64,000 bases of DNA, from the sequence record OR352953.1; one strand, 5' to 3'. Made by a program: the position numbers and the translations under genes. Below the pieces are notes generated by a model. That model saw nothing but the letters and a program-made list of their open reading frames with translations. It searched no databases and was not told the DNA's origin. Shown piece after piece: positions 5,163-48,828 of this stretch. Within the stretch, counting starts at the first letter, position 1, and the number at the start of each line of letters is the position of its first letter. The stretch is from Escherichia phage AV123.

Positions 5163-5504
5163 ATTCTTTTTCACAATGGAAGCGACACGTAAAGAATAGG
5201 CGTAAAGGTGGCGTAAAACCATCTAAAACCGACTGTAACCGCTTAAACAAGGTAGGAATGATTAATCACCTTACCAGGATGAAAAAGCTGTTATAAAGCT
5301 ATCTAGAGCGTTTAAAGCACATAGGAAATAATTTGCTTTTTATCTTGCCTTTTATCCTGCTTTTGATTATTATTATGGAACGGGCGGCACCTGGGGACAG
5401 GGGAAGATAATCACCGGAAGATCCCGCTATATATTAATAGCTAATACCTATCAAACAACAAAACATCAAAGGAATAAACTATCAAATCTTTACAATCCTA
5501 CCTA

Positions 5505-5564
5505 TTGACACCGGATCGCCCTTATACTAAGATGTATCACGTAAGGCGGGAAGTGGTTTCCCGC
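5505..5564 (+). promoter_or_regulatory. early promoter-hairpin cassette (-35 TTGACA 5505-5510, -10 TAAGAT, hairpin GGCGGGAAG-TGG-TTTCCCGC 5545-5564)
   Basis: same architecture as other cassettes. Confidence 0.55.
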
Positions 5565-5583
5565 TCAATATAGGAATCATATC

Positions 5584-5814
5584 ATGATCGAACAAATTAA
5601 ACGCGCTGAAGCTATTAACGGCAATGTGATCTATTCTGTCAGCAATAACGAAAAAGGCGTACCCTATGCAGCGGTGATAGTACAGCCTGACGGTGATTAT
5701 TGGTTTACTGTATACGGATCTTATTCTTTTGGGCGTCCAGTACATGATAAAATTTTGAAAGTAGCTAATCCCACTGGGAAGAATATCACAGTAGAAAAAT
5801 TTTTTGAAAAATAA
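5584..5814 (+). CDS. hypothetical protein (76 aa)
   Basis: track ORF after cassette. Confidence 0.6.
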   Translation: MIEQIKRAEAINGNVIYSVSNNEKGVPYAAVIVQPDGDYWFTVYGSYSFGRPVHDKILKVANPTGKNITVEKFFEK

Positions 5815-5889
5815 CTTGCTTTATAGCCTCTGTTAACTTATAGTTATCGTGTAGGGCAAACAATTTTAAACGGTAAACGAGGAATCACC

Positions 5890-6273
5890 ATGAGCAATAT
5901 CATCAACCTGGCGGCTACTGTAAACGGTAAAGACTTTAACGGCGCTGTAGACCGTGATCCTATGTGGTGCTTGTCAGTGTTTAAAGGTGACTTGGTTGAA
6001 GTTAGAACAACCGAAGGGTATAGCGATGATTATAAATGCGAGATCCATTTACACAACTGGTACACGGGTAAAACTTATGCACTGAATCATGCGTTTATCG
6101 GCAAGGTTGAATATAGAGAAATGATCGACGAAGAAACGGGGCAAGATTTTAGCGAGCATGTTTATATTCGTTCAGAAACATTAGCCGAACGTTTGATCGA
6201 GAAAATGAAAGCAAAAAATAAAATTAATTTATCTCATTGGATTGATATAACAAACGATCCAGCTTATCAGTAA
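5890..6273 (+). CDS. hypothetical protein (127 aa)
   Basis: track ORF; GAGGAA RBS. Confidence 0.6.
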   Translation: MSNIINLAATVNGKDFNGAVDRDPMWCLSVFKGDLVEVRTTEGYSDDYKCEIHLHNWYTGKTYALNHAFIGKVEYREMIDEETGQDFSEHVYIRSETLAERLIEKMKAKNKINLSHWIDITNDPAYQ

Positions 6274-6287
6274 ATAACATTTCAAAC

Positions 6288-6316
6288 AAGGGCGCTTATT
6301 GCGCCCTTTCTTTTTA
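6288..6316 (+). terminator. rho-independent terminator (AGGGCGC-TTATT-GCGCCCT + TTTCTTTTT)
   Basis: GC stem plus T-run; third member of the GGGCGC terminator family. Confidence 0.65.
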
Positions 6317-6520
6317 CCTAAATAAAGATGATAGCTTTTACCTATCAAAAACGTTCACCGAAAAAAGTGAATAGATCGCGGTATCGAGCTAATCAAGGAG
6401 CAGATGAACAACCATACCATGAAGATCATAAGGCGCTTACAACGTGTTTTAGACCGCTTATTTTTAATTTCTTCATGTAATTACCTGGCAAAAACAGCCT
6501 TTTTCTTGTCTTTCCTCTTA

Positions 6521-6600
6521 AATGATAATCATTCTTATTTATAGCTGATTATTTATGCAATAAATTGCATAATGCAATAATGAGAATCATTCTTAACTTA
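6521..6600. repeat. direct repeats AATGA(T/G)AATCATTCTTA (x2, ~57 bp apart) flanking palindrome ATGCAAT-AA-ATTGCAT
   Basis: seen directly in sequence; motif resembles Fur-box hexamer arrays. Confidence 0.5.
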
Positions 6601-6974
6601 AGACCATCTAACCTATAAAATAATAAGTTATCTAACTAAATTAAAACTAATTATCTCACCTTTATTTATAACTTACTGTTACTATCTCATTGATAACATT
6701 GTATTAAACAATAATAACTAATATAAATCATTACTAAGCTAAATATAATCTATCTAACCCTTAAAACTACAATTATAATCTATCGAATTGTTGCACAAAG
6801 TAACTATTAAATTGTTAGTAACATTACTAAATAATTCACATCCTATCTATTTATGATCTAATCTTTACCTTCCTATCTATTACTTAGATAATCATTTCAT
6901 ACAGTAACCATTTCATGTAGTAATCATTCCATACAATAACTATAACAAGAAATATAATTCGCAAGCGTATCATT

Positions 6975-7147
6975 AGCAGCCTATGCCGGACACATAGGCG
7001 GCTAATAATAACGCAACTACACACCCCACATAATAACCATCACCGATAGTTATTATTTGTGCTTATGTAGCTTGCAACAATTGCAAGCGCAACAATATAC
7101 TAGGGTATATTGTATCCCTTACATTGTTGCGGTGCGTTATTATTAGC
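6975..7147. other. nested multi-hairpin element (candidate structured ncRNA or replication/packaging element)
   Basis: outer 12-bp pairing TAATAATAACGC (7003-7014) with GCGTTATTATTA (7134-7145) enclosing perfect hairpins ATAATAAC/GTTATTAT, GCTTGCAA/TTGCAAGC and ACAATATAC/GTATATTGT; GCCTATG/CATAGGC hairpin just upstream (6979-6999). Confidence 0.4.
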
Positions 7148-7436
7148 TAATGTTTAGAACATTGGCTATAATATAAGCTATCCAATAATAAACATGGTGA
7201 ATAATGACACTGATGATCATAATGCGCCACCCTCCAGGGGGCGCTATGTGAACACAAAGAAATCTTTCTTGTCAAGAAAAATATCACCATTATTGCGCAA
7301 AATTATTTATATCTGAATAGATGATTTTTCATACTATTGCCCCCTTGATTATTACCATTTGTTGAGCCTACTTTCTTAAAAGCGCAATAAAATAGAATTA
7401 TATTGATTTTTAGTCGGTTTTATAGTACAGAAAGTA

Positions 7437-7458
7437 TGCAAATGATAATCATTATCAG
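7437..7458. promoter_or_regulatory. Fur-box-like operator (AATGATAATCATTATC)
   Basis: 16 contiguous nt identical to the 3' part of the enterobacterial Fur consensus GATAATGATAATCATTATC; related copies at 6521, 6578 and 7624-7654. Confidence 0.3.
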
Positions 7459-7773
7459 CTATCTTCCACGGGTGGCACTATTTCACACCAGATCATTTCA
7501 TTTGGCAAGGTGTATATAGATGTTTAGACTTGCCAAGCCATTGATTTCCTTAGAATTTATCTGTTTTGTTGTGAGTAGTACCTTTCTTGCTTAGAAAATA
7601 ATCAAAAGTCTTATAAGTCATTGAATGATAATACAAATGATAATTATTCTCATTGATATTTGAGGGGGACGGTCGGCAGAAATCGGGGGGTGCTGAAAAT
7701 CGCGTTAAGCACCTCTCGCAAGCGAGCAGTATTTTGCGGCAAGTTATTGATATTATTGACTTTACGCTTATGA

Positions 7774-7881
7774 AAAGGGGGTGTGTCGAAATAAATCGGG
7801 TATACCGGAAAATTTTTGTGGCATAGATATTTATTTGTCTATATTATGTACAAAGGGGTGTGTTAAAAATAATAGGTATAT
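7774..7881. repeat. two ~30-bp direct repeats AAGGGG(G)TGTGT-N-AAATAA-N-GGTATA
   Basis: copies at ~7774-7804 and ~7852-7881 upstream of first gene of next block. Confidence 0.45.
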
Positions 7882-8013
7882 ATAGAATAATTGATAGGGA
7901 ATATCTATACTAATTCCTCCATTAATGATATTCCTATGCTACTGCTCTTGTAATAGATGAAAAGACGCTGTATGATGTGTGGCATGAAACGTAAACTTAT
8001 AAAGGAGTCTGAT

Positions 8014-8379
8014 ATGTGTGTTCCTCTTAGCAGTCCACTGCTGTTAGAATTTTACAAAGCATGGATGCAAGATCATTCCTCAATGCATCGTGAGAATGTT
8101 GGTTTGTGTATTTGCCTTATGGATTATCTGGCAACCACTATGTCAAAGAAAAAACCTACGCGAGAAGATATAGAACATTTCAAAATGGTTCGCAGTAAAA
8201 CGCTGGAAGAGATGAAATTGCAATTCACGTGTGCTGGGCTATCCTCCTTCCTGCCCTTTAATGATGATCTTCTGTGTTATGAAGATGAAGGTAAGAAACA
8301 TTCTTGCCATACTAACCCAGGGAGATTGCAGTGGGTGAAAGACAGACTCGAAGATGCAAATAATGCTTGCATTGAATAG
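8014..8379 (+). CDS. hypothetical protein, paralogue family A (LLxFY ... GLCxCLxDxL ... HPFN ... RxQWVxDR)
   Basis: in-frame ATG of track ORF 7957..8379 with AAGGAG RBS; shares motifs with 10160..10528 and 11152..11736. Confidence 0.55.
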   Translation: MCVPLSSPLLLEFYKAWMQDHSSMHRENVGLCICLMDYLATTMSKKKPTREDIEHFKMVRSKTLEEMKLQFTCAGLSSFLPFNDDLLCYEDEGKKHSCHTNPGRLQWVKDRLEDANNACIE

Positions 8380-8449
8380 AAATGCCTGTACACTGTGTTC
8401 CATAAGATATGCAATATCGCGCATAACAAACTACTAATGAGAGGTGTAA

Positions 8450-8767
8450 ATGAGAACCTTAGCTTTGTATATTGATCCTCACTCCATTCGAGAAATGCGA
8501 GATGTACAACAGGATTATGAATTCTACCCAGAAATTTGTGAACGCTATGAAACTATTCTTAGTTCTGTAGAAGATCCAGATACTAGTGAAACAGGTGTTT
8601 CCCACTTACTGTGGATGTTGAATGAAATTCAGGATGGGTGTAATGATATGTCTGAAACCAAACGCCATCGTTGGCTAGGCTATATTCAGGGTGTTATGGT
8701 TATGAAAAACCTTATTACAGTGAATGATGAACGTAATGCTACACGCCCCGTCTTTAATGGAGCATAA
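8450..8767 (+). CDS. hypothetical protein (105 aa)
   Basis: track ORF; GAGAGG RBS. Confidence 0.55.
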   Translation: MRTLALYIDPHSIREMRDVQQDYEFYPEICERYETILSSVEDPDTSETGVSHLLWMLNEIQDGCNDMSETKRHRWLGYIQGVMVMKNLITVNDERNATRPVFNGA

Positions 8768-48105: not shown

Positions 48106-48828
48106 TTAAGCAATGATTGCTGCGATATTAGGTTTAACAAAGGTAGATGGTTTCATAATTTTACCTTTATCATCAAAGAATACGTACACCTTTTGAACTT
48201 CGTTATATACAGCATGTACCCCAGTATAAGAACCTTCTGCACGATCTTTGCTTCGCATCTCGATAGCATCGCACTCTTTTTCAAGAGCTTCAATAATATC
48301 CTTAGTTTCCCAAATAGCCAGGAGTTGCTTCTTGGTAGGATACTTGGACTCATTGCTATTCAACACTTCACGCATAACCTTCTTCTCGTTATAAACAGAA
48401 CGCACCAAAGTATCTCGTGCCATACGGGTAAGTGTAAGAGACATTAAGGCAAATTGCAAGTCATTTTCTACCATTTTATCAAATTCAATGATAACATCGT
48501 AAATGTTTTCTGCCAGAACATCCCCTGTCGGCATTTCCAGAGCTTTATCAACACCTTCTTTACCAAAGAACATAAATGCCAGGTAGGAGGCTACCACAAA
48601 AATATCTGCTGCTGCATCAAGTAATTCAACGTGATCATTTTCCTGTGCTGCTGCTTGGAACTCTTTAAGTTCTTCTCGTACAAAAGAAAGTTGAGCTTCA
48701 AACATCTCTTGAGTAAATTCTGGAGTTACTCCACCACGTGCCTTAGCATTCCAAGCAACAATTTGATCGGCAGCTTTGATAAAGAAGCTATTGTCCACTT
48801 TTACTTGTTTGAAAAAATTCTCGATCAT
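48106..48828 (-). CDS. MazG-like nucleotide pyrophosphohydrolase, tentative
   Basis: REELKEF ... DHVELLDAAADIFVV resembles the MazG acidic EExxE...D metal-binding motif. Confidence 0.35.
   Translation of the reverse strand: MIENFFKQVKVDNSFFIKAADQIVAWNAKARGGVTPEFTQEMFEAQLSFVREELKEFQAAAQENDHVELLDAAADIFVVASYLAFMFFGKEGVDKALEMPTGDVLAENIYDVIIEFDKMVENDLQFALMSLTLTRMARDTLVRSVYNEKKVMREVLNSNESKYPTKKQLLAIWETKDIIEALEKECDAIEMRSKDRAEGSYTGVHAVYNEVQKVYVFFDDKGKIMKPSTFVKPNIAAIIA

Follow-up and report, generated by a model that had tools for sequence, protein, structure and literature searches.

Within the 64,000 nucleotides of Escherichia phage AV123 that we analysed (record OR352953.1; hereafter the window), a gap at 6274-8013 separates a homologue of Phi92_gp248 (5890-6273), on its left, from homologues of the first phi92 genes (the gp001/gp002 region), on its right. 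This gap, which holds a direct terminal repeat (DTR), four Fur-type palindromes and a multi-hairpin element, is the subject of this report. Matching of the gap to phage records identified the window as that of a Justusliebigvirus, a phi92-like myovirus of about 146 kb in the subfamily Stephanstirmvirinae. A megablast query of 6280-7960 (1.68 kb) matched 70 phage records, 47 of which cover at least 80% of the query at one place, with best-place identities mostly of 90-99%, and nearly all of these are Justusliebigvirus.

A sequence-only reading of the same DNA had drawn the gap at 6317-7956, had called it AT-rich and devoid of credible open reading frames (ORFs), and had offered four roles for it: an origin of replication, a packaging (pac) site, a structured non-coding RNA or a switch between two early gene blocks. 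The gap itself and its character stand, with slightly larger bounds, as an AAGGAG ribosome-binding site precedes the start of the next gene on the right, at 8014 (judged from homology with inny_220 and from reading the sequence). The longest ORF of the gap encodes 57 amino acids, the five largest matched none of the PHROG families, every reading frame is interrupted by indels in the cross-genus alignment, and the GC content falls to a minimum of 26%. A scan for tRNA and tmRNA genes found nothing inside the gap, and a sigma-70 consensus scan gave 28 promoter-like sites against 18 expected, none of them both strong and conserved. Several GenBank records, among them PQ567651, PP925835, PQ438393 and OR525700, annotate seven to nine 'hypothetical proteins' within the gap; because these are short, not conserved across genera and without a PHROG match, they are probably over-calls.

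The direct terminal repeat and the genome ends

The RefSeq record of phi92 (NC_023693) is opened inside the gap and annotates a 343-bp repeat as DTR-L (1-343) and DTR-R (148270-148612). DTR-L and DTR-R have the same sequence, and BLAST puts both at 7365-7707 of the window; the alignment of the phi92 left end, repeat included, shows 96.8% identity over 563 bp. The corresponding features of AV123 are listed here, with a slash marking the cut.

7365-7707, no strand: direct terminal repeat of 343 bp, one copy in the record, from the phi92 annotation mapped by BLAST
7361-7367, plus strand: left edge of the repeat, with the cut at 7364/7365 in GTTG/AGC; DTR-L of phi92 starts AGCCTAC, and Schickermooser has TGTTG/AGC
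7704-7710, plus strand: right edge of the repeat, with the cut at 7707/7708 in GTTA/AGC; DTR-R of phi92 ends ...CGCGTTA, and Schickermooser likewise

The repeat is present only once in the AV123 record because assembly of the genome ran across the junction. Since it maps to 7365-7707, the region can be read as a concatemer junction made up of an untranslated right-end leader of 1.09 kb (6274-7364), the DTR, and a left-end leader of 0.3 kb (7708-8013) before the first gene.

The relatives of AV123 agree on where the ends lie. A 342-bp DTR was found with PhageTerm in BME3, another Justusliebigvirus (PMC12210895). The record ends of BME3 and of Klebsiella phage phi1_175008 correspond to about 7706, and the records of PD06, VEcB and PHB05 open at about 7365. 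In Schickermooser, a Phapecoctavirus, an exact 329-bp repeat is common to both record ends (reported as 328 bp; PMC6563267), and its edges are homologous to those of phi92, with ...TGTTG/AGC... at the left edge and ...TCGCGTTA/AGCAC... (CGCGTTA/AGC) at the right edge. By homology, then, the same sequence stands at both ends of the virion DNA, over 343 bp in phi92 and 329 bp in Schickermooser. Stephanstirmvirinae genomes in general are described as ending in DTRs in a 2025 paper (PMC12695924). Among the Vequintavirinae, the sister subfamily, LL12 has a DTR of 459 bp (PMC6658697) and KPP-1 one of 514 bp, assigned to the T7-type class by PhageTerm (PMC9862379), each within a large non-coding region; the box labelled 'non-coding' in rV5, another phage of that subfamily, is a further case of such a region with the repeat (PMC3606486). 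Read data bearing on two-fold coverage or read-start peaks at the repeat have been reported for BME3, LL12 and KPP-1.

The two edges share the motif GTTR/AGC, after which AC(C)TTCT comes next in most genomes, and within the gap the heptamer GTTRAGC occurs at these two places only. The left edge is conserved across lineages as TGTTGAGC...TTCTCTTAAA, and the edges reported for KPP-1, GCTA/AACACAATTCTCTC and CCGTC/TAGCACC, resemble the motif. The independently determined termini of two genera fall at homologous nucleotides within GTTR/AGC, and the ends are thus fixed and non-permuted. Of the four roles proposed from the sequence, the packaging site came closest, in that the physical ends and the 343-bp DTR do lie here; what did not hold is the headful pac site, since the termini are fixed. 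We are confident that the region is the genome terminus, and hence the concatemer junction, of a phi92-like phage, and it is around this junction that we propose a mechanism below.

The whole gap is homologous and colinear across Justusliebigvirus, Phapecoctavirus and unclassified relatives, that is, across Stephanstirmvirinae. Because identity across genera is only 61-65%, conserved islands are visible. At a column identity of at least 93% over 13 sequences from four lineages, these islands are the terminator (6288-6308), TATCGAGCTAATCAA, the palindrome TATGCAATAAATTGCATAAT, four pieces of the hairpin element, the third Fur-like box AATGATAATCATTATCA and the right edge of the repeat, GAAAATCGCGTTAAGCACCTCT. 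The 2.6-kb non-coding region of rV5 gave no BLAST similarity to the gap. IMG/VR yielded few additional homologues (three loci by the hairpin pattern and five by the gp248 protein), so sequence diversity was taken from the GenBank phage collection.

Two small features near the ends may be recorded here. Phapecoctavirus genomes and Citrobacter phage Tr1 have a small GC-rich hairpin of variable sequence 5-8 nucleotides before the left cut (for instance ATCGC-GTA-GCGAT or CCGCC-ACA-GGCGG), which the AV123 window lacks at 7345-7364. Inside the DTR, ATCTGTT stands at 7559-7565. This is the core of the class II pause signal of T7 RNA polymerase at the T7 concatemer junction; to our knowledge, AV123 has no T7-type RNA polymerase. 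The motif is short and not conserved in Phapecoctavirus, and we treat its occurrence as chance.

Palindromes of the Fur type and their constant spacing from the ends

The sequence-only reading had noted four copies of AATGAnAATCATT, one of them with 16 contiguous positions of the enterobacterial Fur consensus, and both statements proved accurate. The motif is exact at 6521, 6579 and 7441 and has one mismatch at 7636, with only one further one-mismatch site in the whole 64 kb; positions 7441-7456 are identical to positions 4-19 of GATAATGATAATCATTATC. The boxes, together with a candidate site for IHF between the last two, are as follows.

6521-6537, no strand: Fur-like box S1, AATGATAATCATTCTTA, two mismatches to the 7-1-7 core
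6579-6595, no strand: Fur-like box S2, AATGAGAATCATTCTTA, partly conserved outside the genus
7441-7457, no strand: Fur-like box S3, AATGATAATCATTATCA, perfect 7-1-7 match and a conserved island
7636-7652, no strand: Fur-like box S4, AATGATAATTATTCTCA, one mismatch to the 7-1-7 core
7534-7546, minus strand: IHF consensus, WATCAANNNNTTR, matched exactly; about midway along the DTR and inside the island TTGCCAAgCCATTGA, which is conserved across genera; a lead only

S3 is the best of the four, as 7443-7457 is a perfect TGATAATnATTATCA (15/15) and the box matches 17 of the 19 positions of GATAATGATAATCATTATC. In Phapecoctavirus, S1 reads AATGATAACCATTATCA, with 13 of the 14 specified 7-1-7 positions, and S4 is the identical TGATAATTATTCTCA. 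Fur-type motifs are enriched, since not one of 1,000 dinucleotide shuffles of the AT-rich region reached the observed counts for any of the four patterns tested. In both genera, S3 starts 77-79 nucleotides from the left end and S4 ends 55-59 nucleotides from the right end (79 and 55 in AV123), and these distances are fixed even though the repeat is 343 bp in one genus and 329 bp in the other. A second exact match to WATCAANNNNTTR lies at 7740-7752 on the minus strand.

The Fur interpretation also gains support, at the level of sequence, from E. coli itself. A 30-mer of S3 was searched in 5,426 E. coli genomes and four hits were sampled: the sufA promoter (18/18 nucleotides); the Qin prophage of K-12, about 233-240 bp upstream of nohA; a Stx-type prophage of an O145 strain, upstream of the genes for the small and large terminase; and a region of strain IAI39 rich in insertion sequences. 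The sites of sufA (-53) and nohA (-233) are among the strongest Fur clusters of E. coli according to Chen et al. (2007), who observed a gel shift of the nohA site at 150 nM Fur (PMC2189734). The nohA site is the lambda-type cos region: downstream of the box in Qin come GGGTCCT and, after it, the cohesive end of lambda, GGGCGGCGACCT. As this Qin box and the Fur-binding site known from nohA are one and the same, the nohA site is part of a packaging site and is not obviously a promoter. The 16-mer core that S3 has in common with the sufA promoter is found in lambda as well (NC_001416), where TGATAATCATTATCA stands at 48452-48466, 36 nucleotides from the right end, and the 16-mer of S3 at 48451-48466. 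A perfect or near-perfect 7-1-7 box beside GGGTCCT is found in lambda and in the cos regions of the Qin and O145 Stx-type prophages, in both prophages upstream of the small-terminase gene. We take the GGGTCCT beside the lambda and nohA boxes to be cosQ. Given a perfect box whose core is identical to that of the Fur-shifted nohA site, S3 very likely binds Fur in vitro.

Whether the palindromes are true Fur operators in the phage, with Fur as a functional partner of the phage DNA ends, is a wider question, and we regard this as quite possible, if short of probable, on the sequences in hand. Fur could serve as an accessory factor in cutting or packaging, as IHF does at cosB; it could act on entering ends; or the boxes could form a Fur sink that de-represses iron uptake when present in many copies. 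The quality of S3, the sufA and nohA sites among its closest sampled E. coli matches (PMC2189734), the lambda box and its Stx-type counterpart upstream of terminase genes, and the constant distances in two genera all argue for such a role, and the I1 site of cosB, bound by IHF, is a precedent for a host factor (PMC4669245). Related termini add to this. In Vequintavirinae, the ORF-poor stretch downstream of the gp248 homologue holds three to five boxes with at most two mismatches (4MG, KNP2, an IMG/VR contig and KPP-1), where about 0.07 would be expected per 1.6 kb, and these loci, from Mydovirus and Seunavirus, cannot be aligned to the AV123 gap by BLAST. In KPP-1 the stretch contains the published 514-bp DTR, and one box lies 100 nucleotides inside that repeat. 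On the other hand, one half of most phage boxes reads ATTCTCA instead of ATTATCA, a difference that could point to another protein; Tr1 lacks S4 and its S1 is of the 7-0-7 form; and rV5 offers weak matches only. Our literature search found nothing linking Fur to cos or packaging, or describing Fur boxes in phage genomes, and the idea is accordingly novel but unsupported.

If the boxes are compared with E. coli Fur operators (sufA, nohA and the iucA type), the likeness lies in the 15/15 and 17/19 matches of S3 and in a core of 16-18 nucleotides common to sufA and nohA. They differ in that the phage boxes overlap no recognisable conserved promoter, belong to a virulent phage and keep fixed distances from the ends. 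Weak minus-strand matches to the promoter consensus do overlap S3 and S4, and none of them is conserved across genera. The suggestion of a host regulator that switches from one early gene block to the other finds no support. On linear virion DNA the two blocks occupy opposite ends, and are therefore neighbours only in concatemers or circularised assemblies. In addition, transcription flanking the Vequintavirinae termini is convergent and the boxes persist there, which argues against their being operators of early promoters.

The palindromes could instead be sites of a phage-encoded dimeric DNA-binding protein, such as a small terminase or an early repressor, with the likeness to Fur a coincidence among AT-rich palindromes. 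Taken together, the sites give the consensus AATGAkAAT-n-ATTmTCATT, a 9-1-9 palindrome whose halves each have one position with G/C variants; the sites are confined to the terminus region, and their spacing from the cuts is fixed, as for terminase sites such as R1-R3 of lambda (PMC4669245). However, the same core stands beside cos in lambda and in the Stx-type prophage, that core binds host Fur in vitro, and no candidate protein was identified, so that we find this explanation somewhat unlikely. We would presume the terminases of lambda and the Stx-type prophage to be unrelated to that of AV123.

A base-paired multi-hairpin element

Between the second and third boxes lies the best-conserved island of the gap, with about 80% identity against 61-65% for the gap as a whole.

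6967-7150, minus strand (tentative): multi-hairpin element of 184 nucleotides, from inverted repeats, folding and covariation

An element of about 170 bp had been described at 6975-7147, with a 12-bp outer pairing around three hairpins. The element and its three enclosed hairpins (7027-7059, 7070-7088 and 7088-7132) are real; the outer stem is a perfect inverted repeat of 15 bp rather than 12 (7001-7015 with 7133-7147), and immediately outside this stem there is a fourth hairpin (6979-6999). The z-scores of folding against dinucleotide shuffles are -7.1 for plus-strand RNA, -9.35 for minus-strand RNA and -7.4 for plus-strand DNA, and none of 200 shuffles was equally stable. The element was found in 132 phage records, and among the matches listed all are in, or related to, Stephanstirmvirinae. 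Its end lies 217 bp to the left of the repeat in AV123 and 181-269 bp to the left in every lineage.

Folding and covariation across homologous phages, one of the checks suggested for the gap, strongly support the structure. With 16 distinct sequences aligned, RNAalifold predicted 44 pairs on the plus strand, with 99.7% of pair cells paired and compensatory double changes at nine pairs. Not one of 500 shuffles had as high a covariation score, and the signal was lost when the partners were slid by one to three columns. Both the outer stem and the first hairpin show swaps of GC for CG among their compensatory changes, and the sequence of the second hairpin is wholly replaced in Tr1 and in Klebsiella phage FKP3. 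On the minus strand, 51 pairs were predicted, none of them broken and 11 compensatory, and five variable pairs alternate between Watson-Crick and G-U. The minus-strand fold is 14-22 kcal/mol more stable in 16 of 16 sequences, with five to seven G-U pairs against none to three, and the loops and junction residues are invariant. The pairing is evidently under selection, which fits either an RNA or single-stranded DNA arising in replication or in duplication of the repeat. These models tentatively favour the minus strand as the one that folds.

Beyond Stephanstirmvirinae, a covariance model of the element gave one weak match, in the Mydovirus KPP-1, which is syntenic (18.6 bits, with a rough E value of 0.014) and sits about 270 bp to the left of the KPP-1 repeat; 4MG, KNP2 and rV5 gave no match. 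As only this weak match was obtained, homology of the element outside the subfamily is unproven.

The element might encode a structured non-coding RNA. Its transcription would probably run leftward on the minus strand, and could start at a promoter in the repeat that is under Fur control. Such a gene would account for the unbroken minus-strand pairs with their exchanges of A-U for G-U and C-G for U-G, for the better minus-strand fold and for the invariant loops, and the minus strand does carry a consensus-level promoter match, GTGCCA-16-GATAAT (7478-7451), that overlaps S3. Yet consensus scans and cross-genus alignments revealed no conserved promoter or terminator flanking the element, a scan of 5500-8500 on both strands against Rfam 15 gave no match at E <= 1, and our literature search turned up no transcriptome for Stephanstirmvirinae. 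Single-stranded DNA would select base-pairing equally well, and because the minus strand is G-rich in the hairpin stretch, G-U pairing is inflated. We consider a non-coding RNA gene rather unlikely.

An origin of replication had also been proposed, and part of the right-end leader (6595-7150) might be one, with AT-rich DNA for unwinding, iteron-like repeats, and hairpins that load primase or helicase. The stretch that adjoins the element on the left is as follows.

6595-6960, no strand: AT-rich stretch, G-poor on the plus strand, with iteron-like direct repeats (families D3, D9 and D10), from composition and a repeat search

A GC content of 26% suits an origin, as do direct repeats with a spacing of about 30 bp, a 16-bp tandem repeat in three copies at 6889-6936 (the 'repeat_region' annotated in phage inny), an ATTAGC/GCTAAT motif that recurs in and around the hairpin element, and a strong local strand asymmetry (18 G against 64 C in the 366 nucleotides of 6595-6960, with GC skew down to -0.44). 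The stretch is poorly conserved in sequence across genera, however, and its repeats are not conserved, with a copy number of the tandem repeat that differs between strains. DnaA boxes in the gap match at no more than eight of nine positions, the cumulative GC skew shows only a local dip with the same sign on both sides, no initiator gene adjoins, and skew analysis in rV5 identified no origin (PMC3606486). An origin at this place therefore seems to us distinctly unlikely.

Proposed processing of the junction and its known counterparts

We suggest the following course of events at the junction. The terminase, or a partner nuclease, would recognise GTTR/AGC in concatemers and cut at both edges, after which the repeat may be duplicated by strand-displacement or hairpin-primed synthesis, as has been proposed for T7. 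Proteins on the palindromes and on the central IHF-like site, whether Fur, IHF or a phage protein, would shape the junction for cutting or act on incoming ends; those at S3, the IHF-like site and S4 could possibly draw one edge towards the other, in the way that IHF acts between R3 and R2 of lambda cosB (PMC4669245). The hairpin element would serve end processing or replication as a folded single strand, more probably the minus strand, or else act as a non-coding RNA. Models of T7-type processing, including one with a hairpin intermediate, have been summarised (PMC4281155, citing Chung and Hinkle 1990).

Several points weigh against this scheme. The termini of AV123 itself would lie where we put them by homology, at about 97% identity to phi92 in the repeat. 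Because the edge motif is a direct and not an inverted repeat, it does not by itself imply a simple model with one nickase acting on opposite strands. Neither a small terminase nor any other DNA-binding protein could be linked to the palindromes, and the IHF match in the DTR is a single consensus hit where about 0.2 are expected by chance, on a rough estimate. The evidence on the strand of the hairpin element is mixed, since one helix has T-G on the plus strand, and the C-rich plus strand (negative GC skew) favours the minus strand by composition. Sigma-70-type matches in the left-end leader are weak.

The DTRs of phi92, BME3 and Schickermooser are homologous to that of AV123; phi92 is about 97% identical in the repeat and has the same 343 bp, the same edges and the same flanking genes. 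The DTR as such is thus already known, being annotated in phi92 and mentioned in several genome papers. The records and papers of the phi92 group give the repeat alone, and the edge motif, the Fur-type boxes and the hairpin element are not described there. As far as the records and the papers other than the phi92 paper of Schwarzer et al. (2012) go, the edge motif, the covarying hairpin element and the association of DNA ends with Fur boxes appear to be unreported.

The junction resembles that of T7 and T3 in its short exact repeat, its non-permuted ends, and the repeat arrays and hairpin-forming sequence beside the repeat. The T7 hairpin may be in the same relative place as the hairpin element of AV123. 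In contrast, AV123 is a 146-kb myovirus, there is no sequence similarity, and we know of no Fur-type boxes in T7. Lambda cos, for its part, is likewise multipartite, spans about 200-350 bp, has protein sites at fixed spacing from the cut and uses a host DNA-bending accessory protein, and lambda too has the ATGATAATCATTATCA core, 36 nucleotides from its right end. However, lambda has 12-nucleotide cohesive ends made by staggered nicks at one cosN, whereas AV123 would have two cuts 343 bp apart and a terminal repeat, and GGGTCCT (cosQ) is found nowhere in the gap, which is therefore not a cos region of the lambda type.

The packaging of genomes with short DTRs is understood mechanistically for T7 and T3 only, and for the therapeutic coliphages related to rV5 and phi92 the length of the repeat alone has been reported. 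The gap supplies cis-elements that can be tested: a cut motif at both edges, putative protein sites at fixed spacing and a covarying structured element. If Fur binds, a phage terminus would for a second time, IHF at lambda cos being the first, be seen to incorporate a DNA-binding protein of the host; iron status would be linked to maturation or entry of phage DNA; and there would be a possible reason for the strong Fur site that E. coli K-12 has upstream of its prophage genes nohA and nohB. More broadly, Fur might be a recurrent and so far unrecognised partner of phage DNA ends, with operators 36-80 nucleotides from the ends in enterobacterial phages that are unrelated (lambda-type cos phages, and the DTR phages of the phi92-like group and Mydovirus). 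It would be an accessory factor in the recognition or cutting of ends or in DNA entry, as IHF is at cosB, or would couple these steps to iron status, and the hairpin element might be a new cis-acting structure for end processing or a non-coding RNA; we think this combination improbable as it stands. In practical terms, our results indicate where to open these genomes, and that the hypothetical proteins placed in the gap in several records are probably spurious.

The remaining features of the gap are listed below.

6288-6308, plus strand: intrinsic terminator closing the upstream (right-end) gene block, with an 8-bp GC-rich stem and a T run
6382-6396, no strand: conserved island TATCGAGCTAATCAA, with at least 93% column identity in the 13 sequences of four lineages
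6554-6573, no strand: palindrome TATGCAATAAATTGCATAAT between S1 and S2, among the most conserved blocks of the gap
7708-8013, plus strand: left-end leader, preceding the first gene; contains the direct repeats 7775-7799 and 7852-7876 and, at 7856-7900, a conserved block

The terminator is the only credible one that a consensus scan found in the gap; it is kept across genera and is annotated as such in Paula, phAPEC8 and Schickermooser. The left-end leader is the probable site of one or more early promoters, and its conserved block at 7856-7900 may carry the first of them; GGTGTnAAAAATAAnnGGTATATATrGrATAATTGATAGG in this leader is conserved across genera. The two direct repeats of about 30 bp reported at 7774 and 7852 are present, and map more exactly to 7775-7799 and 7852-7876, with 76% identity and a weaker third copy at 7662-7686 (family D4). 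We also considered the GGGTGTGT...GTATA repeat as a reused phage promoter and rejected it, as there were eight loose matches against 13.7 expected in the 64 kb and no recurrence.

Two observations concern the records and the window at large. Sequences like those of the coliphages in this subfamily are carried by phage records labelled Campylobacter (A150, A145, C3, A110a and B15), Pseudomonas (PsgM04F) and Acinetobacter (ABPW7); A150 and its relatives are about 94% identical across the gap, and the host labels of these records look doubtful. Elsewhere in the window, 15 tRNA genes are clustered at 59145-62200 on the plus strand.

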